Shown: positions 13,690 through 41,710, numbered from the stretch's first letter. The stretch is DNA of 58,889 nucleotides from Deltaproteobacteria bacterium (GCA_019313825.1 JAFDAM010000004.1:1-58889), one strand, 5' to 3'. Notes: generated by a model from the letters alone, not told the origin. Translations and numbers: made by a program.

Positions 13690-13707
13690 CATCAAGATCT
13701 GTGCCAA
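13690..13707 (-). promoter_or_regulatory. Sigma-54-type promoter TTGGCACAGATCTTGATG
   Basis: TGGCAC-N5-TTGA (GA instead of GC at -12); identical 18-mer at 41296-41313. Confidence 0.7.
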
Positions 13708-13801
13708 CATGGAGACCAATTGTTCTTGTTAGATATCCCTTGTTATCATAGACACTTATATCAATGAGTGTTTTCGAGGGACATAATCTTATAAAAGTAA
13801 T

Positions 13802-13820
13802 TTGAGACACAATTGATACA
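13802..13820. promoter_or_regulatory. Proximal activator site (TGAGACA/TGATACA, 11-bp period)
   Basis: ttgagacacaattgataca, 95 bp upstream of the promoter; counterpart at 41411. Confidence 0.6.
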
Positions 13821-14042
13821 CTCCTGTTTACCCGTATATCAACGACACAACGCATGGTTTGTCCAGGGTTATGGGGAAATGAAAGGCTTTTATCAAGCGT
13901 ACCCTGATGAGAGAATAAAGCAGGAACGATAATTATATTAAGATCTTAACGACCGGCGAACCTGAGATGCTCCTTAATATGCTAACAACCTAATTTAAGA
14001 AGTAAAATCAAGTTGAGATATAATATGATTAGAGGACTAATA

Positions 14043-14095
14043 TGAGACCTCAACTGTCTCAAAATCTTCATGAAACATAACTGTCTCATGAGACA
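14043..14095. promoter_or_regulatory. Distal TGAGAC/GTCTCA activator-site cluster
   Basis: 14070-14095 matches 41685-41710 at 23/26 positions. Confidence 0.7.
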
Positions 14096-14349
14096 CCCAA
14101 GCATGCAGAAAGTAATTCTTCCGCCTTTTTACTTTACAACAAGATCAGTTATGATCCTGAAGATTATGGTCATGATTTGGAGACCGCTTCGCTTGACATG
14201 CCTGTCCTCTTTTACTACGCTGCTTGAACAAATTCACGATTTGCAATGTCGAATATAGGAACAACAGTTCTCCCTAGTCTGACGTGTCCGCCTTTGGCGG
14301 ATTGAAGGTGTACCTCTTTTTAAGTCACCATACCTAAAGTTTAATACCC

Positions 14350-15153
14350 ATGGATAAAAACCTTTTTTTAGCTTTCAGTCTTACCGCGCTTGCGGGTCTG
14401 TCGACCGGCATCGGGAGCACAATTGCGCTCTTTTCCAAAAGAACAAATAAATATTTTATTTCATTTGTGCTCGGCTTCTCCGCCGGTGTCATGATTTATG
14501 TATCTTTTGTGGAGATCCTTGTTAAGGCCCGTGACAGCCTTGTGATGGCCCATGGCGAAATAAAAGGAGCGTGGTTTGCCATTCTCTCCTTTTTCGGCGG
14601 CATGGTGCTCATTATGATCATTGACCTCCTTGTGCCCTCCCATGAAAATCCTCATGAGGCTCGCTCCGTAGAGGAAACCCGGGGTGATATACCTTCCGAG
14701 AAGAAACTTTTAAAAATGGGCATATTCACTGCTATGGCGATAGCCATTCATAACTTTCCTGAAGGCCTTGCCACCTTTATAAGTACATTGAAGGACCCAT
14801 CCCTCGGTATTTCAATAGCGATTGCAATTGCGATCCACAATATTCCGGAGGGTATATCCGTCTCTGTCCCGATCTTTTTTGCCACTGGAAGCAGGATAAA
14901 AGCATTCTGGCTATCGTTTCTGTCGGGTTTATCTGAACCGCTTGGCGCACTCATAGGCTACACGCTGTTAAGGTCGCTCTTTTCGGATAATACCTTCGGA
15001 GTTCTCTTCGCATCCGTAGGCGGGATTATGGTCTATGTATCTCTGGATGAGCTGTTACCCGCGGCCCGCGAATTCGGAACAGGACATATTGCCATTCTGG
15101 GTGTTATTTTCGGGATGGGAGTAATGGCCTCGAGCCTTCTGCTGTTCATGTAG
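14350..15153 (+). CDS. zupT: ZIP-family zinc/divalent metal transporter
   Basis: GFSAGVMIYVSFVEI, HENPHE, AIHNFPEG, AIHNIPEG, DELLP. Confidence 0.93.
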   Translation: MDKNLFLAFSLTALAGLSTGIGSTIALFSKRTNKYFISFVLGFSAGVMIYVSFVEILVKARDSLVMAHGEIKGAWFAILSFFGGMVLIMIIDLLVPSHENPHEARSVEETRGDIPSEKKLLKMGIFTAMAIAIHNFPEGLATFISTLKDPSLGISIAIAIAIHNIPEGISVSVPIFFATGSRIKAFWLSFLSGLSEPLGALIGYTLLRSLFSDNTFGVLFASVGGIMVYVSLDELLPAAREFGTGHIAILGVIFGMGVMASSLLLFM

Positions 15154-15173
15154 AATCTGACTATAGCCTAATA

Positions 15174-15507
15174 TTTATTGTTCAACTTTTAAAGCCACGT
15201 CCTTTGGACGTGTCGAAGCTTCCCGCCTCTGGCGGGAAGTCAGAGATAATTGGCTCTACCTGAAAGGGCAGTCTAATCCGGCAATGACGATTAATAAGGC
15301 TTAAGGCCGAAGGCTGAAGGAAGGAGCTGTTCCTGTCTTTTGCCGTATACCTTATGCCTTACGCCTGTCGAAGATCCCGGTTTATCGAGGCGCCCTTTAT
15401 ATTTAGATATCGCCTTGAAAAGATAGTCATTGCCTTCTTTGATAGACAAATGCCACATCCTTCCCCGCCAGATTAGACGGGATCTTCGATGGACGTGGAT
15501 TCTTTAC
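15174..15507 (+). mobile_element. Hairpin-ended element, family B copy 1
   Basis: Shares left end, ttggctct..cctgaaa..gggca..ccggc.atgac block, agatatcg.cttgaa block and right end (gtggattctttac) with 39135-39497. Confidence 0.75.
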
Positions 15508-15551
15508 TGAATTGTCTTTCTGAACACGGTTTCTCTTATTGGGAGTATCTA

Positions 15552-16112
15552 ATGAAAATGCTGACAATCATTCTCATATCAATCGCCCTTGCAATGGATG
15601 CCTTTGCAGTATCCATCGCGAGCGGGATCGCTATTAAACGCCTCCGAATCAGGCACGCCCTTACCATTGCTTCCTGGTTCGGCCTGTTTCAGGCCCTAAT
15701 GCCAATTATTGGATGGTTAGGCGGCATCAATATCAAGGATCTGGTCGCAGGATTTGATCACTGGATCATTTTCGGCCTTCTTGCTTTTATCGGGTGCAAG
15801 ATGATCTATGAATCCTTTCAGATTGACCCGATCGGGAAAAAAGATCCATTGGATATACATGTCCTCTTCCTGCTGTCGATCGCCACAAGCCTGGATGCCT
15901 TCGCAGTGGGAATAAGCTTTGCCATTCTAGGCATCTCTATAATAACACCGGTACTGATAATCGGCCTTATTACCTTTGTAATGTCATTTATAGGGGTCTG
16001 GTTGGGAGATATGGGTAAGCATTTCTTTGAGAAAAAGATTGAAATAGTGGCGGGTCTTATTCTTATCGGTATTGGAGTCAAGGTCCTGCTGACTCATCTG
16101 ATGGAAGGTTAA
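15552..16112 (+). CDS. mntP: Manganese efflux pump MntP
   Basis: ALAMDAFAVS, FGLFQALMP, DHWI, IATSLDAFAVG; the longer ORF start at 15489 lies in a repeat element. Confidence 0.9.
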   Translation: MKMLTIILISIALAMDAFAVSIASGIAIKRLRIRHALTIASWFGLFQALMPIIGWLGGINIKDLVAGFDHWIIFGLLAFIGCKMIYESFQIDPIGKKDPLDIHVLFLLSIATSLDAFAVGISFAILGISIITPVLIIGLITFVMSFIGVWLGDMGKHFFEKKIEIVAGLILIGIGVKVLLTHLMEG

Positions 16113-16128
16113 TCTTTAAGAGCTTTAC

Positions 16129-16167
16129 AAAAAGCAGGGCGGTGATATTTATTAATCACCGCCCCTG
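16129..16167 (-). terminator. Intrinsic terminator after dnaK
   Basis: gggcggtgat/atcaccgccc 10-bp stem with an A-run on the left (U-tail on the minus strand). Confidence 0.75.
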
Positions 16168-16187
16168 ATTAGATTAGACACAATCTG

Positions 16188-23225: not shown

Positions 23226-23732
23226 TTACTTTTTTAATGAATGCAAACTATCGTTCAAAAACCTTATATGTTTCATTTCCTCCTTGATTATATTTTCGAT
23301 TTTATCTTTGCCGAGCTTTTCAGGGACAAACTCCTTCATTCCCAGGTAAAAAACAATAGCTTCCTTCTCAAGACCAATGGCCGCCCTTAATATCTTTCTC
23401 GCCTTTTCCTCCTTTGATATTCCCTCAGGAATGACAAAACTATCGCCTGCCTTTTCGTCAAAAACACGGAGATCTGCCAGGGCACGAAGATACAGCACCG
23501 ATTCTCCTTCAGGGTCGAAAACCGTTGGCTCTTTTTCCCGATCAGACAGATCCGCTCTCATGGAGATGAATAGTTTTTCATGCTCCTCTTCCATTGCCGC
23601 AAGATCAAGAAACAGTTGCTGAATTGGGGAACTTGAGACATTTTCCGCGTTCTGACGATAAAATCGTGTCCCATTTCTCTCAATCTGTTCCGCTATCTCG
23701 AATATCTCATCCACATTAAAATCATAAACCAT
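23226..23732 (-). CDS. Ferritin-like/rubrerythrin diiron-domain protein
   Basis: AEQIERNG..FY, EEEH, AIGLEKE..FY, EEMKH. Confidence 0.9.
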   Translation of the reverse strand: MVYDFNVDEIFEIAEQIERNGTRFYRQNAENVSSSPIQQLFLDLAAMEEEHEKLFISMRADLSDREKEPTVFDPEGESVLYLRALADLRVFDEKAGDSFVIPEGISKEEKARKILRAAIGLEKEAIVFYLGMKEFVPEKLGKDKIENIIKEEMKHIRFLNDSLHSLKK

Positions 23733-23763
23733 AATACAGTCTGCTCCTTTCATTTCAGCATAC

Positions 23764-24245
23764 TTAAATGATTTTTAACGGAAAACGGCGAAAATCGGGG
23801 TCCTGTTTATAAAAAGCCATATTTCCCCCTGAGCCTCTCCGACAATTTCCCGACAGACTCAAAGGCCGCTTCAACGGTTTTTTCTCCATCCGGGTTGATA
23901 AGGCAACAGTGGCCGGCGACAGCAGGCTTTTTGATAGCATATGATCAAGATCAATCCCTTTCCCCCTGAGGATTTGCCATATCTCTAAGAGCCGTGCCTC
24001 AAGGGAATCAATATTCTCCTCCATGAAGGGCTCAAAGTTGGTGGGAACGATCCCCCATACAAGTACACCGCCGCGATCCAGAAACCTCTTGATGCCTGCA
24101 CATACATATCTTCATAGTAACTGTAATTAGGAAGCTGGGGCCAGAAGGGTATATCCATAGACAAGGCCACTTCCATTGCCCTCTCGATATCTTTGTGGGG
24201 CATCACGGCCATTGCCGTAGTGAGCAGATTCCCGGGAATAGTCAT
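23764..24245 (-). pseudogene. Internally deleted MetE/URO-D-fold protein gene
   Basis: PFWPQLP..EDMY N-terminus joined out of frame to WGIVPT..LLSPAT C-terminus. Confidence 0.65.
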
Positions 24246-24264
24246 CTGAGTCGTTTCCTTGGAG
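24091..24264. repeat. 174-bp direct repeat, copy 1
   Basis: Matches 26902-27075 with 6 mismatches. Confidence 0.92.
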
Positions 24265-24270
24265 ATGGCC

Positions 24271-24744
24271 TCACATCTCCTGCATGTAGACACTCTCATA
24301 TAGAGTTTCAAGGCGTGCGAGATGATTCTCCTCGTCCTTATATAGCTCTTTAAACATCTCCGCCATTGGGGCCCCGGTGCATTGTTCGGCCATCTTCCCA
24401 TAATAATCCATTGCTCGCTTCTCTTCGTGAATTGCAAAGATCATGACATCCTGGTCCGTGGAGTTTTCACTTAATGGCTTTTCCTTCAGCATTATTGAAA
24501 GGTTCATACTTGGACCTTCATCCTTGCCCGAAGAATCCAACATGACGGCATCCTCAAAAAGGGCCTTTTCAAGTATATATTTATGCTTCAGTTCATCGAG
24601 GGCAAGATCCTTTAAAAGATCCCTGGTTCTTGATTCCTTGATCCTGAAATACGCGTTTCTATATGCCTCAAAACTCTTAGTCTCCATCTCAATCGCCTTT
24701 TCCAACGCTACTTCCTGCGTATAACATACATTTTCAGTTTCCAT
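24271..24744 (-). CDS. Ferritin-like/rubrerythrin diiron-domain protein
   Basis: AIEME..Y, DELKH, AIHEEK..YY, DEENH. Confidence 0.9.
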   Translation of the reverse strand: METENVCYTQEVALEKAIEMETKSFEAYRNAYFRIKESRTRDLLKDLALDELKHKYILEKALFEDAVMLDSSGKDEGPSMNLSIMLKEKPLSENSTDQDVMIFAIHEEKRAMDYYGKMAEQCTGAPMAEMFKELYKDEENHLARLETLYESVYMQEM

Positions 24745-24830
24745 TTAATTCCTCCTTTTTAACTTGTCTATCCATATTAAAAACAAGGCGACTACTCAGG
24801 TGGATAGGCTAAGCAGTTACGGTTATTATA

Positions 24831-27056: not shown

Positions 27057-27075
27057 CTGAGTCGTTGCCTTGGAG
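26902..27075. repeat. 174-bp direct repeat, copy 2
   Basis: Offset 2811 bp from copy 1. Confidence 0.92.
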
Positions 27076-29632: not shown

Positions 29633-29634
29633 AT

Positions 29635-29730: not shown

Positions 29731-29795
29731 GATTCTCTCCTACAGCCTAAATACCTACAGCCTATCTACCTGAGCAGTTACGTCACACTTAACTA

Positions 29796-29948: not shown

Positions 29949-30006
29949 TAACTATAATGTTCTCGTTATTCATTGTTACCCTCATGAATAGGGTTTTATC
30001 TTATTA

Positions 30007-30258: not shown

Positions 30259-30425
30259 AACCTCCATTTTTTAAGGTGATCTTTTCATGGATCTGCTTAT
30301 TCCGTCCCCCAAGGCCCTAGGAAGCCGCATATAGGAGGACCTTTAATTCTTCCTCTTTGATCTTCTCTTTTATCCTGATCTGGCTTGAACATAACAAGCG
30401 TTGAAACAGTGAAGTAATATGAATA

Positions 30426-30941
30426 TCATATCAGTCTATTTACGGCTTTCAACACAGCGTCATAGTCAGGTTCATCCGAGATTTCCTTAACGATCTGGAT
30501 ATAACGGATCATACCTTCACGATCCAGAACAAACACTGCTCTTGACAGCAACCGGAGCTCTTTAATCAAGACACCATAGGCAGTGCCAAAAGATGCATCA
30601 CGGTGATCAGACAGGGTAATCACCCTGTTCACACCGGCTGCTCCGCACCATCGCTTTTGGGCAAAGGGCAAGTCCATGCTTATGGTTAGTATTTGGACAT
30701 TCTCATCAAGTTCACCGGCCTCTTCATTGAACCTGCGTGTTTCCATGTCGCACACAGAAGTGTCCAGAGAAGGAACAGAGGAGATAACGGTGACCTTCCC
30801 CTTGAAAGACGATAGTTTGACGGAAGACAGGTCATTACCGAGGATTTCAAAGTCTGGAGCAGGGTCTCCTACCTGTAACTCTTTGCCTATCAGAGTCAAT
30901 GGATTGCCTTTCATTGTCACGATTCCTTTTCGCTCATCCAT
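30426..30941 (-). CDS. tpx: Thiol peroxidase
   Basis: VPSLDTSVC, ISMDLPFAQKRWC, EPDYD. Confidence 0.95.
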   Translation of the reverse strand: MDERKGIVTMKGNPLTLIGKELQVGDPAPDFEILGNDLSSVKLSSFKGKVTVISSVPSLDTSVCDMETRRFNEEAGELDENVQILTISMDLPFAQKRWCGAAGVNRVITLSDHRDASFGTAYGVLIKELRLLSRAVFVLDREGMIRYIQIVKEISDEPDYDAVLKAVNRLI

Positions 30942-31012
30942 TTTGCCTCCTTTCATCCCACTCAAATGGTTGCAAACGTCGTAATCTTCTAAACTTATAC
31001 GTGTAAAAAGTA

Positions 31013-31111
31013 TTAATCCGCCAGAGGCGGACAAGGGTTTAATTCTCCACCACTAAGGCGATAATATGTCTTCTGCTTGATATCCCGTTGTTTATAGCGG
31101 GTTAATTCATT
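31013..31111 (+). mobile_element. ~100-bp hairpin-ended element, family C copy 2
   Basis: Homologous to 27804-27903. Confidence 0.75.
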
Positions 31112-31161
31112 ACCGGGTCCGGCGTATCGCTGATTCTTCCAAATATCCATATCCGGCATGG

Positions 31162-32790
31162 TTAATCCTCCTTCTTCCAGTAAGGGTTCATCAGGTCTTC
31201 AAAGATGGCCAGGGCAGCCTCAGAGCCTTGGCCTGCTGCCGTAACGATCTGCTTGAAGCCGCCTTCAACGTCGCCTGCGGAATAGATCCCCGGGATATTG
31301 GTTCTGTGTCTAGAGTCATGCTTGATGAAGCCCTCCGGCGTAATTTCGACACCGATCTTTTTAGCAAGCTCAACAGCAGGCATATAACCTACTGCTATAA
31401 ATATTCCGTCGACATTTAAAGTATATGTCTTATTTGTAACATTATTTAAAAGTTCAACTTCCTCTACCTGTTTATTCCCTCTTATCTCCTTGACTTCAGT
31501 ATTAAGAACAACAGAAATCCCGCTATCCATGATTCTTTTTATTAGGTGTTCCTGAGCCCTCAATTGATCTCTTCTGTGGACAAGAGTTACTTCCACACCG
31601 ATATTATTCAAGTGTAATGCCTCTGTAACTGCGCTATCTCCGCCCCCGACCATTATCACCTTTTTCCCTTTAAACAGCGGACCATCACATGTGCTGCAAT
31701 AGGTTACTCCGTGCCCTGAAAGACGTGTCTCCCCCAGGACATCAAGGGTTCTGTGTCTTGCGCCTGTTGCAAGGAGAACCGCCTTTGCGGAAAAGCGCCT
31801 TCGGGTTGTGACGATTTCAATGGGATCGTCCGTACTGATATCCATGACCTCTTCACCCGGAAAGATCTTTGCGTACTCCAGGGCATGACTCACCATAAGA
31901 TCCACCAGCGCCTTGCCGCCTACCTGTGTGAGGCCCGGGTAGTTCTCGACCACGGGCGTATTCGCCACCTGCCCGCCAAGGGCGTCCTTCTCAATGACCA
32001 CCGCCCTGAGACCGCTGCGCGCGGCATATATGCCGGCGGTCAGCCCTGCAGGACCACCTCCGATTATAACCAGGTCCGTCTCCACCTCGCTGGCGTCGCT
32101 CTCAGGGATAAATACGGTCTGCTGCTCCATCTTCTCCAGGGAGAGCATGAAAAGCTCTTCCTGTTGGGCGCCTACAGCGATAAGTTTTTCATTGGCATAG
32201 ACCTGCGGTACGCTCTGGGCCGAATATCTCTCTGCCAGCTCCGGGTTTGCCTGAACATCGATGATTTCGAGGGAGATCAGATCGGGTCTCTCAATGGCCG
32301 CCTTAAGCCCGTTTACCGCCTGCTGGGGGCAGTAGGGACAAGTAGGGCTCACGAATACCTTGATATGGCGCCGGGAATCGATTTTCTGTAATATCTTCTT
32401 CGACTCCTCGTTCAGATCGGTCCTGCCATATCCCAGCATGGAAATGGCCTCGACAAAGGTCCGTCCCTCTTCACCCATGGGCGCACCCAGCCATCGAATA
32501 CTGTATCGCTCAGGATCAAAGAGCAGGGTGGGAGAATACTCGGCGTTCCATTTCTTTGCCTTTTTATGATTCAGATCAAACTCAAGAAATGTAATCTTAT
32601 CAGTCAACTCCCTTACAGAACGGATCAACTTCCTTGCGGCCTGACTGAAAAGATCGTTTTTCCCGGGGTTTGCCAGGAGTATCAATGGTATCTTATTGGT
32701 AATCCCTTCAAAAAGTCTTATCAGTTCGGCCTGTGCCTGCAGCTCTTGTTCATGATCATGAATGTGCTCCGAATGGTTATGGTCAGCCAT
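31162..32790 (-). CDS. Thioredoxin reductase with N-terminal thioredoxin-fold domains (AhpF-like architecture)
   Basis: CPYC in the N-domain; GGGPAG, CSTCDG, GGGDSA, AGD. Confidence 0.92.
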   Translation of the reverse strand: MADHNHSEHIHDHEQELQAQAELIRLFEGITNKIPLILLANPGKNDLFSQAARKLIRSVRELTDKITFLEFDLNHKKAKKWNAEYSPTLLFDPERYSIRWLGAPMGEEGRTFVEAISMLGYGRTDLNEESKKILQKIDSRRHIKVFVSPTCPYCPQQAVNGLKAAIERPDLISLEIIDVQANPELAERYSAQSVPQVYANEKLIAVGAQQEELFMLSLEKMEQQTVFIPESDASEVETDLVIIGGGPAGLTAGIYAARSGLRAVVIEKDALGGQVANTPVVENYPGLTQVGGKALVDLMVSHALEYAKIFPGEEVMDISTDDPIEIVTTRRRFSAKAVLLATGARHRTLDVLGETRLSGHGVTYCSTCDGPLFKGKKVIMVGGGDSAVTEALHLNNIGVEVTLVHRRDQLRAQEHLIKRIMDSGISVVLNTEVKEIRGNKQVEEVELLNNVTNKTYTLNVDGIFIAVGYMPAVELAKKIGVEITPEGFIKHDSRHRTNIPGIYSAGDVEGGFKQIVTAAGQGSEAALAIFEDLMNPYWKKED

Positions 32791-32908
32791 GTCATCCTCC
32801 TTGATTTCATTTTAAAGGGTTTTAAACCTTGCTGCACTCAGGTAAAAATGTATTTGACCTATGTCCTATAGTTACGGAAACATTTAGTATTGCAGTAGGG
32901 ACGATATC

Positions 32909-33241
32909 TTAAAAAATGATCTTTTCAGGCGGTCTCCTCTCCGGTACATACTCATGGGGAATTTTATCTTCATTCCACTCCTTTGAGACATATAGGTTAC
33001 AATAGCAGCTGCCATACTCCTTTACATCTTCTTCCCGGTATATGCAGGGACAGATGACGTCCACATCAATATTGCGGTCCGATGCAAGCCTGCACGGACA
33101 GCACATATAGCCGTAACGCTCTTTATTCAGGAGAAGCCCTTCTATAAGTTCAAAGACCATTTCTTTATTTTTATTGAAATAATAACCTTTCGGTTCATGG
33201 ACCTTCCTTAGCATCTCGTATAATTCTTCCGCTTTACTCAT
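32909..33241 (-). CDS. Ferredoxin:thioredoxin reductase catalytic subunit family
   Basis: CPCR, CPC, CYC. Confidence 0.93.
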   Translation of the reverse strand: MSKAEELYEMLRKVHEPKGYYFNKNKEMVFELIEGLLLNKERYGYMCCPCRLASDRNIDVDVICPCIYREEDVKEYGSCYCNLYVSKEWNEDKIPHEYVPERRPPEKIIF

Positions 33242-33492
33242 AGTCCAAGGGCCTCCTTTATCTCATTTTCCTTATAACCCACTATTACCTTGTCTCCGAT
33301 GGATATGGTCGGAAAAGAGGAACGCGGATTCAATTTCTTAACTTCTTCAAGTGTGGCCTTCCTCTCTTCTCCTTTAAGCAGGTCTACGTCAGTGAATTCG
33401 TACTCTATGTTGTGTTTATCCAGAAGCTTCTTTACTGACTTACAGTGACTGCAGGTACTAAGAGTATAAATCTTAACCTCCTTTTCCATCAT
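33238..33492 (-). CDS. Glutaredoxin/NrdH-like redoxin
   Basis: TLSTCSHC, SFPT, VIVG. Confidence 0.92.
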   Translation of the reverse strand: MMEKEVKIYTLSTCSHCKSVKKLLDKHNIEYEFTDVDLLKGEERKATLEEVKKLNPRSSFPTISIGDKVIVGYKENEIKEALGL

Positions 33493-34456
33493 CCTCCTCC
33501 TTGATTAACTTCAAGACCTTCTCCTCTATCTGGTCCCTGATTCGCCGCATAAAATCGATAGACTTCCCTGCCGGGTCAGGCAGGTCCCAATCCTCCTTTA
33601 CAGCTCCCGGGACATGGGGACATTCACCTCCGCAGCCCATGGATGCTATAAAAGCGGGATCTCCTGTTGAAATTGCCTCATCAATGGATTTTGGTTTTCG
33701 AAAGGCCATGTCTATGCCCTTCTCCATCATTACTTCTTCCATGATAGGATTAATCTCCTTAGCAGGTCTGCTCCCCGCGCTTTCCACTTCCAGCTTGTCA
33801 CCCGCGTACTGCTGAGCAAAGGCGCTTGCCATCTGGCTGCGGCAGGCGTTTTCTTCGCATATAAAGAGCTCCTTCTTTCTGTTCAGATATGGAGTCACCA
33901 TTGACCCGGCCTTTTCCCTTACGTCGGAGATGGCCGTAGGATGCTTCAGTATATCCTCTGGACCCTCAAGACGCCTGTATCCGAGACTTCCTTCAAAACT
34001 CGCTCCCACAGCATCAAAAAAATACTTTGCCGTCAGGGTTGTGCCCTCAAATAGATTCTTTCCCTTGGTCGCCCCGAGTGCCAGTAAAATGCCGTGCCGC
34101 CACTTTCGACCTGGATCAGAAAGGTTGTGCGTATATCTCCTGGCCCACAGGGCCTGGGACCTGTCAATGCACGCCTTTAACTGCGCAGTGGGGCCATAAA
34201 AGAAGATCGGGGTTGCCATGATGATGATCTCAGCCCTGCGAAGCAGGGGATAGATCTGCTGCATATCATCATCTATGGGGCAGTAACCTTTATCATCGCA
34301 TACACCACACTCCAGGCAAGGGGATATATTCATCTTCGCCACATCAAGCCGTTGCGTACGCGCTCCAAGTCTTTCAGCCTCTGACAGGAACTCCGAGAGA
34401 AGAGTGCTTGTGTTTCCTTTGTCTCGCGGGCTACCCTGTAATCCAATGACGAACAT
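33473..34456 (-). CDS. Iron-sulfur flavoprotein (Isf/FMN reductase) fused to an ArsC/LMW-PTP domain
   Basis: GSPR..GNT, CLECGVC..C, TPIFF; C-domain CEENACRSQMA, SAG, GCGGECP, WDLPDP. Confidence 0.88.
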   Translation of the reverse strand: MFVIGLQGSPRDKGNTSTLLSEFLSEAERLGARTQRLDVAKMNISPCLECGVCDDKGYCPIDDDMQQIYPLLRRAEIIIMATPIFFYGPTAQLKACIDRSQALWARRYTHNLSDPGRKWRHGILLALGATKGKNLFEGTTLTAKYFFDAVGASFEGSLGYRRLEGPEDILKHPTAISDVREKAGSMVTPYLNRKKELFICEENACRSQMASAFAQQYAGDKLEVESAGSRPAKEINPIMEEVMMEKGIDMAFRKPKSIDEAISTGDPAFIASMGCGGECPHVPGAVKEDWDLPDPAGKSIDFMRRIRDQIEEKVLKLIKEEDDGKGG

Positions 34457-34489
34457 ATAGATATCACCTCTCCTGTCTGCTTTTAAAGT

Positions 34490-35293
34490 TCATATTCCCT
34501 GAACGGAAACCGAAAAAATTTCGGGAATCGATACAGCTTCCTCATGATTGAAATTGTTCCTTATTATTCCTATATGAGAGAGACCCCAATCGTACTTGAC
34601 TGGGTCATCCTCAGAATACTCTCTCAAATTGTCCGTTATCTCCGTTGCGGCACCCAATGAGGCACTCCTTTTTGATGTAAGTCCCAGGGCCCTTGAAACC
34701 TGGAAAATATGCGTGTCAAGGGGGATAACAAGCTCATTACGGCTTATAAAATTCCATAGGCCCAGATCTATATTGTCCTCTCTCACCATCCATCTGAAGA
34801 ACATGAAGAGCCTTTTACAAGGGGACTTCTTCAGTGAAGAAGGGATCAGATAGTTTGACCTTTGAAATCGCTCCATGAACTCTTCCATGACTTCCAGGAG
34901 GTGTCTCTGTTTATATCTCTGCTCAATAAATTCGCCCAATGAGCCATGTTCTTCTATGATCTCCTTTGCGGAAAAAAGCAGATGAAAGGCATCAATCCCC
35001 TTAACAAATCTGTACTTAAAGGAAAGCAATTCCCTTTCCGGCTTCTTTCTCAGCCTTGCAACGTATTTCAGGGGCTTGCCATCCATGATACACAGCAAGG
35101 AATCCATGGCCTTAAATATCTGCGACACCCGGCCAAAGGAGAGAGATGACGCGATCAGACCGGCAAGCTCCCTCTCTATCCTGTCTTTAAATCTGTATAC
35201 ATATTTTATGGGGTCGTACCGGATGTATCCGGGGTTATTATAAACCCTGTACAGGGCATCCAGATCTTCCTTGAGATTCTTTCCTTGAGACAT
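34490..35293 (-). CDS. TIGR02757/DUF2400 family HhH-GPD-like protein
   Basis: DPI, SPCKRLFMFFRWMVR..IDLGLW, IPLDTH, DDPVKYD. Confidence 0.88.
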   Translation of the reverse strand: MSQGKNLKEDLDALYRVYNNPGYIRYDPIKYVYRFKDRIERELAGLIASSLSFGRVSQIFKAMDSLLCIMDGKPLKYVARLRKKPERELLSFKYRFVKGIDAFHLLFSAKEIIEEHGSLGEFIEQRYKQRHLLEVMEEFMERFQRSNYLIPSSLKKSPCKRLFMFFRWMVREDNIDLGLWNFISRNELVIPLDTHIFQVSRALGLTSKRSASLGAATEITDNLREYSEDDPVKYDWGLSHIGIIRNNFNHEEAVSIPEIFSVSVQGI

Positions 35294-35300
35294 CAATGTC

Positions 35301-35993
35301 CTACCTTCCAATGCGTCTTAACGCCTCCGCGGCCATATCCTTCACCCGGAGATTAACTAATCTGCCATCCATGAATACCTGGATCTCGGCCTCGGCCCCT
35401 GTTAACGTTTCCAGTCTGGAACTCGCATCCTCCGTTCCAAGCAGGCCCATAATCCAGCCGGCAAGGCCTCTGACCGTGGCATCCGACGATTCAAGATAGG
35501 GCGTAATATATGGAACAGACCCCTTAATAAGTTCAGGATTTACCTGGGCCAGTCGCCCGATCCCCCAGAGCACTCCCCGCTGCATGATTTCATTTTCCTG
35601 ATAGTTTCCGTCTTTCCTTGCATAGGAGACGAGTATCTTTGAGTATTCCCCTGCCAGGGCATTGCTGTTTGCCAGTATCTCTCCCATGGCCTCGGGAGAA
35701 CCCCACCCGATCCCGCCTGACTCATCGTTCAGGTTCCACATGAGCCGCCGTATGATCACACGGGCTGATTCAATATCTTCACGGGCGAGCCTCGCGACAA
35801 CCGCCCCCATGGCCATAACCGCCCTCCACTTGATTTCCAAGTCACCGCCATAGAGGAGTGGGAAGAGGGAATTGATCACCTGGCGCAAGGGAAGTCGGCA
35901 TAAATCCTCTATTGCGGATTCAACATCCTTGGAGTTTAGTATTTCATATGCCTTGCGCTTAATGGACCTGCCTGGCAGCGTTTTAGTACTCAC
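35301..35993 (-). CDS. HEAT-repeat protein (DVU0298-like)
   Basis: RRLMWNLNDESGGIGWGSPEAMGEI. Confidence 0.85.
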   Translation of the reverse strand: MSTKTLPGRSIKRKAYEILNSKDVESAIEDLCRLPLRQVINSLFPLLYGGDLEIKWRAVMAMGAVVARLAREDIESARVIIRRLMWNLNDESGGIGWGSPEAMGEILANSNALAGEYSKILVSYARKDGNYQENEIMQRGVLWGIGRLAQVNPELIKGSVPYITPYLESSDATVRGLAGWIMGLLGTEDASSRLETLTGAEAEIQVFMDGRLVNLRVKDMAAEALRRIGR

Positions 35994-36006
35994 ATCTCTT
36001 CCCTGT

Positions 36007-36207
36007 TCAAGGAACTTCCTCCCGGGTTATACAATCGGCCGGGCAAATACTTATCGCCTCCAGGATTTCACTTTCCGGGTATTCTGGAAGTTCCACTACC
36101 TCTATCAAACCAGTTTCATTGTTTCTCCGAAAGACGGTGGGGCTGATGACAAGGCATGACTCACATTCACTACATTGACTCATGTCTACTACAGGGACCG
36201 TCGGCAT
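36007..36207 (-). CDS. Ferredoxin (single cluster)
   Basis: CSECESC ... CPADCI. Confidence 0.85.
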   Translation of the reverse strand: MPTVPVVDMSQCSECESCLVISPTVFRRNNETGLIEVVELPEYPESEILEAISICPADCITREEVP

Positions 36208-36458
36208 CTCAGCTTTGCTCTCTTCCACTCAGAATACTGTCCGTAGGTAAAACTTGTTCCCAGCTGAGAGCGGTACTCCTTCAGCTCGTCTTCCCTGCAC
36301 AGGCGACATCGGTTCTTGCCGCAGGTCTGGCAGTAGAGGCAGTCCGGGCACTTGGTCTTTCTTTGGTTCTCAGACGCTATCAGGTGCCTTCCAGACTTCT
36401 TATATAACGCAACTAATCTACTTGGGTAATTTCTTGGCGATTTTCTTCCCGAGCTCAT
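36189..36458 (-). CDS. Small Cys-rich protein; start uncertain
   Basis: CPDCLYCQTC-x4-CRLC; fills the gap between fprA and the ferredoxin. Confidence 0.55.
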   Translation of the reverse strand: MSSGRKSPRNYPSRLVALYKKSGRHLIASENQRKTKCPDCLYCQTCGKNRCRLCREDELKEYRSQLGTSFTYGQYSEWKRAKLRCRRSL

Positions 36459-37602
36459 AACACGCCTCTATCCCTGTTTCATCAGGCACATACTGTATTT
36501 TTACGCCCGGGTCCACGACCTCGAACTTCATCTCCTCCAACTCCCTGTTGATCAGCTTGACGGATTCACCGCTCCAGCCGTATGAGCCGAAGGCTGCGCC
36601 GATCTTGTTTATGGGTTTGAGCCCCTTCATGTAAGTAAGAAAATCGGCGACAGTAGGGAAGAGGCCGTTATTAAGGGTGGGAGAACCTACAATGATCGCT
36701 CCCGCATCCAGGACCTCTGTAATAATATCGCTTCGGTGACAGTTCCTCAGGTGCATGGGCTTTGCATCCACCCCCTCTTCGCCAAGGGCGTCAACGATGG
36801 CATTGCTCATCTTTTCCGTGCTATGCCACATGGTATCATAGACGACCAGGGCCTTTCTCTTGGGCTCCTGACTCGCCCATTCCACATAGGCTTTGATAAT
36901 CTTGGAGGGGTCCTCGCGCCAGATAATACCGTGATCCGGGCAGATCATATCGAGTTTAAGTCCCATCTCGGTAACCTTGTCCACCAGTTTAAGTATCAAG
37001 GGAGAGTGGGGGAGGAGAATATTGGCAAAGTATTTCTTGGCATGATACATGATCTCTTCGCCGATCTGGTCGTCAAACCTCTCAAGACCTGCATAGTGCT
37101 GGCCGAACGCGTCACTGGAAAAGAGTATCCTGTCTTCCTTGAGATAGGAGAACATGCTGTCGGGCCAGTGAAGCATCCTTGTCTCTAAAAAGGTGAGGGT
37201 CCACTTACCCAGGCTCAGTTCACCGCCGTTAGCTACCGGCTGATAGTTCCACTTCCGTGGGAAATGTTTTAAGAGGTTCTTATGTCCCATCTTTGAGCAG
37301 TATAGAGGCTTATCTTCCCCTATCCTGTGCATCACCCTTGCAAGACCGCCTGAGTGGTCCATCTCCGTATGGTTGCTGATAACATAATCGATCTTTTTGG
37401 GATCAACGATCTGAGATATATTATCGATAAGCTCATCCGCGAACTCCCGTTTAACCGTATCGATAAGGGCGATCTTTTCATCCACCAGGAGATAGGCATT
37501 ATATGTGGTGCCCTCTTTGGTGGAGTAGCCGTGAAAATCCCTTATGTTCCAGTCTATAGCCCCTACCTCGTAAATTCCCTTTGCGATCTCTATTGGTCTC
37601 AT
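36418..37602 (-). CDS. fprA: Flavodiiron protein (rubredoxin:oxygen/NO oxidoreductase)
   Basis: GTTYNAY, HTEMDHSG, HWPDSM, SDAFGQH, PDHG, flavodoxin domain FGSYGWSG. Confidence 0.95.
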   Translation of the reverse strand: MRPIEIAKGIYEVGAIDWNIRDFHGYSTKEGTTYNAYLLVDEKIALIDTVKREFADELIDNISQIVDPKKIDYVISNHTEMDHSGGLARVMHRIGEDKPLYCSKMGHKNLLKHFPRKWNYQPVANGGELSLGKWTLTFLETRMLHWPDSMFSYLKEDRILFSSDAFGQHYAGLERFDDQIGEEIMYHAKKYFANILLPHSPLILKLVDKVTEMGLKLDMICPDHGIIWREDPSKIIKAYVEWASQEPKRKALVVYDTMWHSTEKMSNAIVDALGEEGVDAKPMHLRNCHRSDIITEVLDAGAIIVGSPTLNNGLFPTVADFLTYMKGLKPINKIGAAFGSYGWSGESVKLINRELEEMKFEVVDPGVKIQYVPDETGIEACYELGKKIAKKLPK

Positions 37603-37666
37603 ATCTCTTTCCTTTCATCTCTTCACAACTGGTTTTCCAAGAGAAACCGGAATTGGCTTATTAAGT

Positions 37667-38737
37667 TCAACTAGTGGGCATGGTAATTTTAAAGACTGTA
37701 CCTTCTCCTTCTTTGCTTTCAAAATTGAAGGTGCTCCCTTTGTGTTCTTCAATAATACTCCTGGAGATACTCAGGCCAAGGCCTGTGCCATGACTCTTTG
37801 TAGTAAAAAAGGGAGTAAATATCTCTTTCTGGTCCGCTTCAGAGATACCACATCCATCATCGGCTATAGTAGTTTCGGCCATACCATTGTTTAATTGCGC
37901 CCGAATAGAAAGATTGCCCCCATTCTCCATGGCCTCAATGGAGTTTTTTTCAAGATTCAGGAAGACCTGCTTTAACCTGTCCCTGTCCCCTTTAATAATT
38001 AAGGGCTCTTTGCCTGTTTTAAACTCGATCCGAATATCTTTTTTTTCAGCATCATGTTTTACCAGTGAATAGACCTCCTTGAGCAAAAGATTAATATCCA
38101 TCTCTTCATAGGTCAGACGCCTTGGCATATAAAACTCCTTCAAATCTTGAAGAAGGCTTTCAAGTCTCTGTACCTCATCAGCTATGACACTCAATTTTTT
38201 TCGACTTTTTTCATCCTTGGCCTGTCGGATCAACTGACGCGCGAATCCTCCGATCATCATGAGCGGGTTTTTTATCTCATGTGTTATCTCAGGTACAACC
38301 TGACAGATAGCCGCGAGACGCTCCGATCTCTTTATCTGCTCCTCCAGGGCCTTGGCTTCTGTCAGATCTCTGATGATGCCCGTAAAGAATAGTTCTCCAT
38401 TCACCTCAGATACGGAAAAGGAGATATCCGCGGGAAACCTCTCCCCGTTCTTCCTGGTGGCCATGATCTCAGTAGCGTGGCCGATACGTGTTGGAGTTCT
38501 CGTCTCTATATAGCGCTCAACCGCTATCCGATGATCCCGGCTGCAGCCGGGTGCCATGATCACATCAAGGTCATGGCCTAACACTTCATCCCGGCTGTAG
38601 CCGAAAATCTTTTCAGCGGCCTTATTGAAGAACAGGACTTTGTGGTTTTTATCAATGGTTACAAAGGCTTCGTTCGTGTTTTCAACAGCGCCTTTTAGAA
38701 GCTCCAGATCCATGTTTTCTATGGGATGTCGGCTCAT
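37667..38737 (-). CDS. PAS sensor histidine kinase (FixL-like PAS)
   Basis: FNKAAEKIFGY PAS, HEIKNPL H-box, DDGCG, PFFTTK, GTGLGL. Confidence 0.92.
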   Translation of the reverse strand: MSRHPIENMDLELLKGAVENTNEAFVTIDKNHKVLFFNKAAEKIFGYSRDEVLGHDLDVIMAPGCSRDHRIAVERYIETRTPTRIGHATEIMATRKNGERFPADISFSVSEVNGELFFTGIIRDLTEAKALEEQIKRSERLAAICQVVPEITHEIKNPLMMIGGFARQLIRQAKDEKSRKKLSVIADEVQRLESLLQDLKEFYMPRRLTYEEMDINLLLKEVYSLVKHDAEKKDIRIEFKTGKEPLIIKGDRDRLKQVFLNLEKNSIEAMENGGNLSIRAQLNNGMAETTIADDGCGISEADQKEIFTPFFTTKSHGTGLGLSISRSIIEEHKGSTFNFESKEGEGTVFKITMPTS

Positions 38738-38747
38738 CTACCCACAC

Positions 38748-38909
38748 TTATTCTACTTTCTCAAACTGGTCTTTTGATGCGCCACAGACGGGGCATACAT
38801 AGTCATCAGGGAGATCCTCAAACGGTACCCCGGGATCTATGTCGTTATCAGGGTCACCATCTTCAGGGTCATATATCCAACCGCAAACCGTGCATTCATA
38901 TTTGTCCAT
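38748..38909 (-). CDS. rub: Rubredoxin (absent from the ORF track)
   Basis: [53 protein letters not shown]; SD AAGGAGG. Confidence 0.96.
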
Positions 38910-39134
38910 TATTTATCCTCCTTATTTTATCTGTTGTCATACCAGCATAACGTTTCCTCTAAAAAGGGACCTGTTCAGATTATACCAATCTCGCTCACAT
39001 TGCAATGATCTGCATCCTTGCTTAAACTTGCAGTTCACTACAAGACAAATACTCTCAGGATCGTACTTAGAAGCAGAAGGTTTTTCTTTCGACCAACTCC
39101 CGTCACGCTAATCTACACACTCGTATTAAGCCTT

Positions 39135-39497
39135 TTTATTGTAACTTGAAAACCACGTCTTAGAACGTGGTCAGAGAAAATTGGCTCTGCCTGAAAAGGG
39201 CAATCTATCCGGCGATGACTATCTCTTCAAGACGATATCTACTACCTTTTGAGGAAGTGGCCAAATATTTGGGCTTTACCAAGTCTATTGCAGATTCCAA
39301 AGGATTCAGAGGCATAAAACCCAAATATTTGACCACTGCAGAGTCAAGTGGAATTCTAAAAAGATATCGTCTTGAAGAGACAGCCATCGCCTCCATGAGT
39401 ATTGATTACGAATCGAAATACCCCTATGGATGAAAAAAGGCCACGTCCTTCTCCCGCCAAATTTGGCGGGAATATTCGATGGGAGTGGATTCTTTAC
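39135..39497 (+). mobile_element. Hairpin-ended element, family B copy 2, with a 181-nt rod-like stem-loop
   Basis: Homology blocks with 15174-15507; nested inverted repeats 39211-39240/39362-39391 and 39257-39278/39315-39336. Confidence 0.75.
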
Positions 39498-39498
39498 C

Positions 39499-39687
39499 CT
39501 AAACTCCGGCGTCTAGCCTGCACTGGGTAAAATCGATCTCTTTCCCGCATCCATCGCATTTATGAGCCCTGTCAAATTCATCTGAGAAGATCTCTTTCTC
39601 CTTCCCGCATTCAGGGCAATTGCAGATGAATGATTTCAGGTTCTTATTGCTTTCAAAGCCGGGACAATGTTGTGGTGTTGTCGTCAT
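39499..39687 (-). CDS. Small zinc-ribbon-like protein
   Basis: QHCPGFE..CPEC..EIFSDE..CDGC; SD AGAGGAG. Confidence 0.8.
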   Translation of the reverse strand: MTTTPQHCPGFESNKNLKSFICNCPECGKEKEIFSDEFDRAHKCDGCGKEIDFTQCRLDAGV

Positions 39688-39832: not shown

Positions 39833-40207
39833 CTATCCTTTCCAGAGTCCGTGAAGGTTGCAGTACTCACGCGCAGTAACCTGATCAGCATCGATTTGAA
39901 AGGTCGCTTCAGGTGCATCTCCCGGTTTGAGGAACCGGCGATAGGCCTTGCCGTCCGCAATAATCTCAATCCACTCTATAAGGTGATCATCACCCATGGG
40001 ATGGGCCACGCTTCCCACCTTGACCTTGAAGCCGTCTGCTGTCTTTTCCACCACAGGCACATGCTTCTCCTTGGCGGCATCTACCGTGTTCTCTTTAAAA
40101 AGCTTCATGGGCTGACCGCAGCAGACAAGCTCTCCTGCGCCGGCATGTACTACTTCAACTATATTGCCGCAGACTTCGCATTTATATATCTCTAATCTCT
40201 CTGTCAT
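39833..40207 (-). CDS. dfx: Desulfoferrodoxin (superoxide reductase)
   Basis: CEVCGN..CCG, EKHVP, HPM..H.IEWI, CNLHG. Confidence 0.96.
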
Positions 40208-40307
40208 TTTCATTCCCCCCTCTTTTTGAATTGATTATTTTAGTTCTTCTCAACACATCTATCGAATCCTTGACCCCTTGACTCCTCGAATCCTCAATTT
40301 TTGGTCT

Positions 40308-40883
40308 CTAGTAGTTCTCGCCCAGGAGTTCGAAATACTCCTGTGGATGCGCACATGCCGGACACTCGTTGAGCGCCTCATTTCCTGAATGGAGGTAGCC
40401 GCAGTTTCTACACTGCCATGTCACCTCAGTATCCCTCTTAAAGACACGACCCGCCTCGATATTCGCGGCAAGATCCTTGTAGCGTTTTTCATGCTGCTTC
40501 TCCGCAATCGCGATAGCCTCGAAAACTGCCGCGATTGTATTGAACCCCTCTTCATTTGCTGTTTTGGCAAAGTCCGGATACATCTCTGTGTACTCATAGT
40601 TCTCGCCGGCAGCCGCCTCCTTGAGATTATCAATGGTATCTCCTATCACGCCCGCGGGAAATGCCGCTGTGATCTCCAGTTCCCCTCCTTCAAGGAACTT
40701 GAAGAGTCGTTTGGCATGCTCCTTCTCCTGGTTTGCGGTCTCCTCAAAGATCGCAGAGATCTGCCTGTAGCCATCCTTTCTGGCCTTGCTTGCAAAATAG
40801 GTGTAACGGTTACGTGCCTGTGATTCCCCGGCAAATGCCTTTAATAGGTTTTTCTCTGTCTCGCTTCCCTTTAGATTGCTCAT
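40308..40883 (-). CDS. rbr: Rubrerythrin
   Basis: [31 protein letters not shown]. Confidence 0.96.
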
Positions 40884-40924
40884 TGTATTCCTCCTTTTCT
40901 GAATATCTATTTTTTCTCCTTTTT

Positions 40925-41020
40925 CTAAAATGCCTTTTTACTGCCGCATTCGGGGCACTTCTGAGGCTTACGCCGGCTTTCTTTTTCGTGACCGCATTTT
41001 TTACACCGAAAAGTTGCCAT
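40925..41020 (-). CDS. 31-aa RCKP-type rubredoxin-like microprotein (absent from the ORF track)
   Basis: [31 protein letters not shown]; AAGGAG upstream. Confidence 0.72.
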
Positions 41021-41038
41021 CTCCTTTAACTCCTTTCC

Positions 41039-41242
41039 TTATTCTTTCCACAAACCTTTTTTCTTGTGAGCATATATCTCCGCTTCCGCGAGTTTCCTGA
41101 CCTTATAAGCAGAGTCCCTCAAAACACTGTAAAGCACTCCGCAGTTTGTGTCTTCCCTGTTGGCATCGCCCTCGTCTGCCAGAGCAAGCATTTTTTTTAC
41201 GAGATCAAGGGTTCTCTTAATGCTTTCATCGCATGGCCTCAT
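41039..41242 (-). CDS. Small hypothetical protein, first gene after the sigma-54 promoter
   Basis: LADEGD..REDTNCGVLY..LRDSAYK; SD GGAGGGG. Confidence 0.8.
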   Translation of the reverse strand: MRPCDESIKRTLDLVKKMLALADEGDANREDTNCGVLYSVLRDSAYKVRKLAEAEIYAHKKKGLWKE

Positions 41243-41295
41243 ACCTATGTCCCCCTCCGCAAGAGATCACTCTTCAAGCGTTTGGCGTCTAATAT

Positions 41296-41313
41296 CATCA
41301 AGATCTGTGCCAA
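41296..41313 (-). promoter_or_regulatory. Sigma-54-type promoter TTGGCACAGATCTTGATG
   Basis: Identical to 13690-13707; between the activator gene and the defence genes. Confidence 0.75.
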
Positions 41314-41410
41314 AATTTTAATCAACAGGGGAACAGCTTAAATCTATTTTAATATCAGAAAGTTAAAGAATAATTGCATTTTTTTACGATAAGATCTTGG
41401 CATGCCCAAC

Positions 41411-41429
41411 TTGAGACACTGATGAGACA
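41411..41429. promoter_or_regulatory. Proximal activator site (two TGAGACA, 11-bp period)
   Basis: ttgagacactgatgagaca, 98 bp upstream of the promoter. Confidence 0.62.
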
Positions 41430-41455
41430 GTCATCTGTATGTGAAGATTGTAAGG

Positions 41456-41468
41456 TAACTTGTTGATA
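41456..41468 (-). promoter_or_regulatory. IHF consensus match
   Basis: TATCAACAAGTTA fits WATCAANNNNTTR. Confidence 0.45.
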
Positions 41469-41662
41469 TTTCGTGTTATTTGACAAAATCAGCATAGGGA
41501 AAGAGACAAAATGTGTGGTAAGGATAAAGATCAATAATATCGGCGGATGTTTTAAAAAACAGGAATAAGAGAATAAATTCATCATAGATATTAGATAGTT
41601 ATATATGTCAAAATGGATCGTATTACCGGATATCATTAAAAGCAAGGTTTGTTAAGGGGAAA

Positions 41663-41710
41663 TCAACCTGTCTCATGTTTATTTATGAGACATAACCGTC
41701 TCATGATACA
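41663..41710. promoter_or_regulatory. Distal TGAGAC/GTCTCA activator-site cluster overlapping the activator stop codon
   Basis: tgtctcat-N8-atgagaca-taaccgtctcatgataca; matches 14050-14095. Confidence 0.7.

Follow-up and report, generated by a model that had tools for sequence, protein, structure and literature searches.

A putative sigma-54 activator and shared half-site arrays at two redox gene clusters of a deltaproteobacterial genome

Two gene runs on the minus strand of a 58,889-nucleotide stretch from a Deltaproteobacteria bacterium (the window; contig C94 of the genome termed G000 here) start behind sigma-54-type promoters that lie 27.6 kb apart. Promoter 2 precedes genes for a small Cys/His protein, rubrerythrin (Rbr) and desulfoferrodoxin (Dfx). 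Promoter 1 precedes genes for an MsrP-like molybdoenzyme, a flavin adenine dinucleotide (FAD) oxidoreductase, 6-phosphogluconate dehydrogenase (gnd) and glucose-6-phosphate dehydrogenase (zwf). The stop codon of a gene for a putative sigma-54 enhancer-binding protein lies in the upstream region of promoter 2. A sequence-only reading of the window had proposed that this one protein co-induces both clusters as a redox and arsenic defence regulon. Are the two promoters served by the same activator, and how much of each cluster would it control? From the sequence comparisons described below, we consider it probable that this sigma-54 enhancer-binding protein drives both promoters through shared half-site arrays.

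Two promoters with one arrangement of half-sites

The two promoters carry the same 18-mer, TTGGCACAGATCTTGATG, which was found in two copies with 0 mismatches (Table 1) and contains the sigma-54-type core TGGCAC-N5-TTGA. With up to three mismatches allowed, 0.09 matches were expected, and two matches were reached in 1 of 100 shuffles. Using a promoter weight matrix (PWM) derived from the orthologous loci, the two promoters were the highest-scoring sites of the window, and the next best site reached 15.5 bits. Both sites look like promoters of this type, and the genome encodes rpoN (PF04552, 211.3 bits, 484-aa open frame at G000:C132).

The half-site TGAGACA occurs 18 times in the window, compared with 7.2 ± 2.7 expected occurrences, and 18 copies were reached in 0 of 100 shuffles. 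Eight of these copies are located in the two upstream regions (13803, 14055, 14082, 14089, 41412, 41423, 41669 and 41686). Each target is preceded by six half-sites, two of which form a proximal pair with an 11-bp period at about -117/-105 (13820-13803 and 41429-41412). The other four lie in a 42-bp distal element approximately 390 bp upstream, with core coordinates 14095-14055 for promoter 1 and 41710-41669 for promoter 2. The distance from the start of the palindrome in this element to the promoter TGG is 389 bp at one locus and 398 bp at the other. The 26-bp distal boxes at 14095-14070 and 41710-41685 are identical at 23 of 26 positions (manual count). The distal element of promoter 2 overlaps the last two codons and the stop codon of the activator gene, the stop codon (41703-41701) lying inside the 26-bp box.

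When the two upstream regions (~500-700 nt) were compared by blastn, only two significant alignments resulted, one of 25 nt at the promoter (92%) and one of 29 nt at the distal box (86%). The spacers between the motifs did not align, and the similarity is thus confined to the motifs. The sequence-only reading had listed the exact repeat, the half-site pairs, the 23/26 box, the stop codon within it and the dissimilar spacers, and all of these were recovered. The motif observation is therefore confirmed as real and far beyond chance.

The arrangement is also specific within the genome assembly (2,266,865 bp in 158 contigs, 64.6% complete). A profile of the distal element, R1, was built from 48 distinct elements of the form TGTCTCATGAGACA-N4-TGTCTCA-N9/10-TGAGACA, whose alignment has 19 invariant columns. 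Exactly two sites of the genome matched R1 over its full length, one upstream of each promoter; the remaining four rows were partial matches that repeat these sites on the opposite strand. Strict half-sites occur 326 times genome-wide, and those paired at ≤30 bp form three clusters, all of them in the two upstream regions. Similarly, the pattern TGT[ACT]TCA-N4-TGT[ACT]TCA has two occurrences in the genome, which are the two proximal pairs. The core TGGCAC-N5-TTGA was found at 10 genome sites, four of which read TGGCACAGAT(C/A)TTGA, so this extended core is not exclusive to the two promoters. The other two, C60:15193(+) and C66:3956(-), which have the extended core TGGCACAGAT(A/C)TTGA, lack the half-site arrays and have different upstream arrays or none. 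They were dropped as regulon members; the genome has 19 PF00158 matches, and other activators among these probably serve them.

The activator, its sensor and its conserved enhancer

The predicted activator matches PF00158 (239.7 bits), PF02954 (43.1 bits), PF25601 and PAS families, and its translation contains the GAFTGA motif and a Fis-type helix-turn-helix (HTH) domain. The GAFTGA protein expected at this position from the first reading is thus present. No equivalog cut-off was reached in NCBIfam, and its homologs bear generic names only. In the AlphaFold2 (AF2) model (mean predicted local distance difference test score, pLDDT, 82.1), residues 1-140 adopt a PAS-like fold, with pLDDT ~76-89 over residues 10-140. 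Within this sensor region, Cys63, Cys73 and Cys79 are invariant in 26 of 26 orthologs, and Cys82 is present in 81%. The HTH region is almost invariant across the orthologs, which fits a conserved DNA site.

In 20 of the 26 distinct orthologs the palindrome starts 7 nt before the activator stop codon, so that the first half-site encodes the C-terminal ...DVS-stop. Coding sequence and predicted binding site thus constrain each other in these orthologs. In the window, positions 41701-41710 read GTA TCA TGA (V-S-stop), which makes up the first half-site and the beginning of the second; DVS-stop is found in most orthologs.

The same arrangement recurs in relatives. We searched 60 related genomes with the sensor domain and with R1. 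Orthologs of the sensor domain (44-61% identity) were found in nine of them, and all nine also had an R1 match. At eight of the nine ortholog loci, the element lies on or just past the activator stop codon. Behind it come proximal half-sites, then a sigma-54 promoter and then a gene homologous to the first one behind promoter 2, which encodes the 67-aa protein. Of the 60 relatives, 21 had R1 matches at E ≤ 0.01. At 13 of 25 R1 loci, the gene immediately upstream encodes a near full-length activator homolog, and at one more this homolog is cut by a contig end. Most of the other R1 loci are second sites in genomes where the activator gene lies elsewhere (e.g. G004 and G056).

A wider sample was obtained by scanning GTDB species genomes with the alignment of the 67-aa protein. 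This gave at least 420 relatives, from which 80 loci were kept (L052-L131), with titles naming Desulfobacterota metagenome-assembled genomes (Desulfatiglandales, Desulfobacterales and Syntrophobacterales). An activator homolog lies ≤1.2 kb upstream at 45 of these loci, Rbr follows at 56 and Dfx at 50. A promoter of the form TGGYAY-N5-NTGN was found ≤200 nt from the first gene at 56 of the 62 loci with enough upstream sequence, and a half-site at -130 to -85 at 45 of 53 relative loci. The distal element is located 192-404 bp (median 354) upstream of the promoter TGG. The conserved order is: PAS-AAA+-HTH activator, distal element, proximal half-sites at about -117/-105, TGGCAY-N5-NTGM promoter, 67-aa protein, rubrerythrin and desulfoferrodoxin. 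Half-site arrays that are fixed beside orthologous activators are the expected signature of the enhancer of that activator. This phylogenetic footprinting strongly supports the earlier assignment of the boxes to the 41701-43080 protein, to which they are predicted to bind. The scan that the first reading had suggested, of this genome and its relatives, thus led to the same two sites and to a match in every ortholog-bearing relative.

The signal was approached by analogy with a known activator. In Desulfovibrio vulgaris Hildenborough, the PAS-AAA+-HTH protein OrpR has three conserved cysteines in its PAS domain, carries a redox-sensitive [4Fe-4S] cluster and works in the reduced state (PMC8359166). 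Like OrpR, the activator in the window has a PAS-AAA+-HTH architecture without a receiver domain, three conserved PAS cysteines and a small, putatively two-operon regulon. Because of this analogy, its signal is probably redox, O2/reactive oxygen species (ROS) or nitric oxide (NO), perceived via a cofactor or a thiol switch on the three invariant cysteines. Such a signal is plausible, and oxidation may turn the activator either on or off. OrpR senses redox in a sulfate reducer (PMC8359166), and the host here is an uncultured bacterium of the sulfate-reducer type, with redox sensing as a prediction. In contrast to OrpR, which is active when reduced, the activator in the window may follow the opposite logic for its defence genes. 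OrpR binds GGGCGYRTTTTGCGCCC and controls the orp operons only, whereas the predicted site here is the R1 element and the targets are rbr/dfx and the MsrP-like gene (PMC8359166). An OrpR-type DNA site was therefore discarded for the 41701-43080 activator, as both the conserved site and the targets differ.

In the mechanism that we propose, the Fis-type HTH domain would recognise the 7-bp half-sites TGTCTCA, and the six half-sites would hold three dimers that make up one AAA+ hexamer, by analogy with the NorR model. The DNA-bound activator would then loop to the RNA polymerase-sigma-54 held at TGGCAC-N5-TTGA and open the promoter by ATP hydrolysis. Promoter 2 would give rise to the small Cys/His protein, a rubredoxin-like protein, rubrerythrin and desulfoferrodoxin, possibly together with later genes. 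Promoter 1 would yield the periplasmic MsrP-like molybdoenzyme, the FAD disulfide reductase, Gnd and Zwf. The combined outputs would provide peroxide and superoxide reduction, repair of oxidised proteins and NADPH supply, a predicted target set that is coherent with oxidative-stress defence. Binding, activation, signal and operon extents are all inferred here from sequence.

Table 1. Positions of the regulatory elements, the activator gene and the surrounding genes in the window
Feature	Position	Strand	Remarks
Downstream cassette	2875-8566	-	AhpD-like (TIGR04169), ArsS radical SAM, DedA/VTT, HtrA-like protease, fused TIGR04282/TIGR04283 glycosyltransferase
Glucose-6-phosphate dehydrogenase (zwf)	8663-10231	-	likely operon 1
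6-Phosphogluconate dehydrogenase (gnd)	10241-11170	-	likely operon 1
FAD pyridine-nucleotide-disulfide oxidoreductase	11146-12609	-	likely operon 1
Tat-signal MsrP-like molybdoenzyme, 239 aa	12689-13408	-	likely operon 1 (8663-13408); SRRFFLG twin-arginine motif; best named relative MsrP
~216-bp repeat in promoter 1 leader	13423-13638	.	like a miniature inverted-repeat transposable element; carries terminator-like hairpin 13629-13611
Sigma-54-type promoter 1	13690-13707	-	same 18-mer as promoter 2; PWM 26.3 bits
Proximal pair 1	13803-13820	-	TGTATCA-N4-TGTCTCA; at -114/-103 of promoter 1 TGG
Distal element 1	14052-14098	-	TGTCTCA abutting TGAGACA-N4-TGTTTCA-N9-TGAGACA; R1 44.3 bits, E 3.2e-11
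Further same-strand redox genes	23226-39687	-	possibly co-controlled by promoter 2
Desulfoferrodoxin	39833-40213	-	likely core operon
Rubrerythrin	40308-40883	-	likely core operon
31-aa rubredoxin-like Zn-ribbon protein	40925-41020	-	likely core operon
67-aa Cys/His helical-hairpin protein	41039-41242	-	likely core operon, first gene; no family; alignment A1; AF2 pLDDT 91.6
Sigma-54-type promoter 2	41296-41313	-	TGGCAC-AGATC-TTGA; PWM 30.3 bits, window maximum
Proximal pair 2	41412-41429	-	TGTCTCA-N4-TGTCTCA; at -117/-106 of promoter 2 TGG
Distal element 2	41668-41713	-	TGTATCA abutting TGAGACG-N4-TGTCTCA-N10-TGAGACA; R1 49.3 bits, E 8.6e-13
Enhancer-binding protein, 459 aa	41701-43080	-	PAS, Sigma54_activat, AAA lid, HTH_8

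The second target and competing explanations

Several points weigh against one activator serving both promoters as proposed here. The textbook -12 consensus of sigma-54 promoters is TTGC, and the -12 element here reads TTGA. The cysteines C52/C61/C65 of OrpR (PMC8359166) are spaced differently from the C-x9-C-x5-C of the sensor in the window (C63, C73, C79, plus C82). The ortholog locus of G056 (L004) has no element at the stop codon, the sites of this genome being located elsewhere. Because the assembly is incomplete, the regulon may also exceed two promoters.

A further point concerns the extent of the cluster behind promoter 2. The genes from the 67-aa protein to desulfoferrodoxin are separated by gaps of only 18-94 bp and therefore likely form the core operon. 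Farther downstream, gaps of 761, 424 and 374 bp precede the kinase/fprA, DVU0298-family and rubredoxin reductase genes, respectively, which leaves fprA, tpx and other later genes unassigned. Scans with R1 and the PWM revealed no second R1 site and no high-scoring sigma-54 promoter in 23226-39687. In the relative G053 (L163, G053:C13), a homolog of the 62-aa Cys protein (Cys62) and a PAS histidine kinase come with an enhancer and a TGGCACATATCTTGA promoter of their own, unlike the Cys62-kinase unit of the window (Cys62 at 39499-39687), which has neither. The proposed co-induction of fprA and tpx is thus unsupported.

The membership of the MsrP-like gene is likewise narrow. Close orthologs (59% identity) were found in 2 of the 60 relatives, G004 and G027. 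G004 encodes the activator, and its MsrP-like gene is preceded by a distal element (44.3 bits) and TGGCACAGATCTTGA, with a leader of ~350 nt. In G027, the ortholog has no element and the genome has no activator ortholog. We also collected 80 metagenomic MsrP-like loci (33-65% identity; 56 with ≥700 nt upstream, 34 of these at ≥50% identity). The element, the half-site pair or the palindrome was present in 0 of 80, and FAD-oxidoreductase, gnd or zwf homologs followed in 0 of 80. In G004, tblastn with the FAD oxidoreductase, Gnd and Zwf of the window gave no match in the gene directly behind the MsrP-like one; this neighbouring gene appears DUF547-like by eye. General membership of the MsrP-like gene was therefore rejected. 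The comparison supports a lineage-specific recruitment, in G000 and in G004, which belongs to another genus, only, with a membership that appears real and narrow.

Element-bearing promoters number four in G004 and three in G056, and the secondary targets vary by genome. They include a 109-aa Cys-rich protein, small Zn-ribbon proteins, rubredoxin and Grx, as well as the Cys62-kinase unit of G053. The predicted core of the regulon is thus the small protein, Rbr and Dfx, with a variable periphery. The 109-aa protein (MKINI..., CxCxCQTC, CCG) is headed by enhancer and promoter at L132 (G004:C164) and L134 (G056:C3), and no such gene lies behind the promoters of the window. In G056, the gene is followed by a ~65-aa ferredoxin-like open reading frame (ORF) and a ...DWDMxPEEAVxLYLEWG protein; the following ORFs of G004 differ. 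Of the earlier proposal that one activator governs two clusters, the part that stands is that the module heads both operons. The full extents are not supported, and the second target is lineage-specific with a repeat in its leader.

This repeat is the basis of the first alternative, in which promoter 1 is functionally uncoupled from its genes. The 282-nt leader has a fold z-score of -5.1. Copies of the repeat that are 89-93% identical and have a long internal hairpin occur at C94:57592-57807, C85:110-323 and C15:4917-5145, which identifies the leader repeat as an insertion like a miniature inverted-repeat transposable element (MITE). The assembly holds at least four near-full copies and many 40-50-bp terminal fragments; the repeat is also matched at 51211-51336 of the window. 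The hairpin at 13629-13611 (8 bp, 7 of them GC, followed by CATCTTTT) is the top terminator-like match in 1-15500, and a terminator effect is possible. Standing between promoter 1 and its first gene, repeat and hairpin could attenuate or uncouple expression, a further point against control of both clusters. If the hairpin stopped most transcripts ~80 nt past the start, the MsrP-like and zwf-gnd genes would not be co-induced in practice, or the product would be no more than a short RNA. In addition, removal of the repeat would restore a promoter-to-ATG distance of ~60 nt, compared with 50-75 nt at 35 of 37 small-ORF promoters. Against this, the T-run of the hairpin is short, the motifs of promoter 1 are intact and high-scoring, which argues against long disuse, and the MsrP-like gene of G004 has a long leader too. 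We regard the uncoupling as unlikely. No Rfam family matched the leader at its gathering score; a single plant microRNA row (E 0.0056; 26.5 bits against a gathering score of 144 bits) is meaningless. Riboswitch, attenuator and small-RNA readings of the leader were dropped, as its structure is that of the MITE-like repeat.

Another regulator might instead bind the arrays, for instance a repressor or an additional activator whose gene lies elsewhere, the adjacent activator gene being incidental. The 19 PF00158 matches of the genome offer candidates, and some element-bearing loci of relatives have no adjoining activator gene. However, these loci are second sites in the activator-encoding genomes G004 and G056. 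In addition, the element overlaps the activator stop codon in most orthologs of this family, occurs in all nine relatives with a sensor ortholog and always has a sigma-54 promoter downstream of it, with conserved spacing; we hold this explanation to be quite improbable. The identical 18-mer and the similar spacing might suggest that the regions were duplicated recently and neutrally, or that a promoter cassette has moved. This is hardly credible and was ruled out, as only 25 + 29 of ~450 nt are alignable and the elements are conserved at no fewer than 48 distinct sites in many species with variable spacers.

Relation to known regulators and neighbouring genes

The activator proposed to drive both promoters resembles NorR of Escherichia coli in several respects. 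The norVW promoter has three dyad enhancer sites, all of them required, which were read as three dimers that form one hexamer (PMC2831303). Like NorR, the putative sigma-54 activator of the window is encoded beside its target, has several enhancer sites and is predicted to serve detoxification genes of the flavodiiron, rubredoxin and reductase type (PMC2831303). An AAA+ domain that is repressed by the sensor domain, as described for NorR, can be listed as a further likeness (PMC2831303). In contrast, NorR senses NO via a GAF domain, whereas the 41701-43080 sensor matches PAS families only and carries cysteines (PMC2831303). The core site of NorR is GT-N7-AC, while TGTCTCA half-sites are present here, with GT-N8-AC in the abutting palindrome (PMC2831303). 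Moreover, the three NorR sites are consecutive, unlike the four half-sites ~390 bp upstream and the two at about -110 found here (PMC2831303). Since the sensor is PAS and not GAF, the site differs and the score with the NorR model NF003451 (348.4 bits) is below its cut-off of 476, the activator was not taken as NorR.

In delta-proteobacteria, control of the rubrerythrin, rubredoxin and roo genes has been attributed to PerR or constitutive sigma-70 promoters (PMC545781). The predicted targets here are similar to the PerR regulons of Desulfovibrio and Geobacter, which comprise rubrerythrin, rubredoxin-like and roo/ahpC-type oxidative-stress genes (PMC545781). PerR itself belongs to the Fur family and represses from palindromes close to the promoter, in contrast to the activator, enhancer and -24/-12 promoter of the window (PMC545781). 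The term "sigma-54" does not occur in the available part of that paper (PMC545781). In the parts available of a sigma-54 regulome paper on D. vulgaris (PMC4641369), a term search gave no occurrence of rubrerythrin, rubredoxin, oxygen or superoxide. The same applies to rubrerythrin in the available text of a 2025 cross-phylum sigma-54 survey (PMC12316311), and to "sigma" in that of PMC11451228. In the literature searched, which excluded supplements and subscription journals, we found no paper on the control of rubrerythrin or desulfoferrodoxin by sigma-54 or an enhancer-binding protein. The earlier remark that no description of this link was known thus holds provisionally. The module is conserved and appears, in kind, to be a classical enhancer-binding-protein/sigma-54 regulon, of which the description is apparently new.

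SoxRS of E. coli couples the sensing of oxidative stress to zwf for NADPH supply. It is of another regulator class and uses another sigma factor, and the zwf-gnd link described here is seen in this genome only.

The first gene behind promoter 2 is itself a conserved component. In alignment A1 of the 67-aa protein, C4, C34, H59, E30 and D31 are invariant. The protein has no Pfam or NCBIfam match, a sequence search of the PDB with A1 gave 0 hits, and a Foldseek search of the PDB with its fold gave no match at E ≤ 0.001. The Foldseek rows at E > 1 are helical hairpins of ferritins and rubrerythrins, which is not evidence of a relationship. Its relatives in Atlas are unnamed clusters only, and it is almost always the first gene behind the sigma-54 promoter. 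A tentative extension, which we put forward with low confidence, is that the three-cysteine PAS activator, probably holding an Fe-S cluster, would be on when its cofactor is oxidised. In this extension, the 67-aa protein would be a new redox or metal component or a feedback modulator, and periplasmic repair of the methionine-sulfoxide type and the oxidative pentose-phosphate branch would have been recruited in this lineage. The logic would then be the reverse of that of OrpR, with ROS removal and NADPH supply induced together.

How strict anaerobes outside Desulfovibrio sense oxygen and induce rubrerythrin and superoxide reductase is poorly known, and PerR-type repression is the route described in the literature searched. 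The locus offers a testable circuit that consists of a regulator gene, a 42-bp enhancer with its invariant positions, a promoter and a conserved first gene of unknown function. Dozens of uncultured sediment and seep species of Desulfobacterota have it, and, if the proposed reading is true, it would be a widespread circuit of these bacteria dedicated to oxygen and redox stress. The motif can be used to predict oxygen-stress regulons in metagenomes. The activator is a candidate second Fe-S/thiol PAS activator beside OrpR, and the recruited repair and NADPH operon would be an example of regulon growth.

The further redox genes downstream of desulfoferrodoxin encode Cys62, the PAS histidine kinase, FprA, a DVU0298-family protein and DUF2400, as well as an FMN-reductase/ArsC-like fusion, Grx, FTR-beta, an AhpF-like protein and Tpx/Prx. 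A rubredoxin-like protein, NADH:rubredoxin reductase, YgaP, Usp, Hcp and Rbr-like proteins are also encoded in this run.

Behind promoter 1, tight packing (gaps of -25 to 80 bp) is limited to the MsrP-like, FAD-oxidoreductase, gnd and zwf genes. The downstream cassette follows with gaps of 97-403 bp, and its genes are at most candidate members of the regulon; the co-induction of ArsS and the glycosyltransferase, proposed earlier, is thus unsupported. NCBIfam scores show that an ArsS "arsenosugar" cassette is present (TIGR04167, 385.6 bits against a cut-off of 300; TIGR04169, 188.3 against 120; TIGR04282, 204.3 against 134; TIGR04283, 214.6 against 182), not that promoter 1 drives it. The names of these families are the only basis of the arsenic theme, which was not retained. 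The ArsS ORF at 7115-8128(-) has an in-frame TGA (...AGAGFT-TGA-GGAIET-TGA) that is compatible with a C-terminal selenocysteine, as judged from the reading frame alone.

A phage-integrase-family gene at 1537-2292(+) lies between the end of the cluster 1 glycosyltransferase gene and an EamA transporter gene, a possible sign of mobility in part of the region. On the other side, a ZIP metal transporter gene and an MntP-type manganese efflux gene (14350-16112, plus strand) are divergent from the enhancer of promoter 1, and the 942-bp intergenic region at this enhancer could serve both directions.

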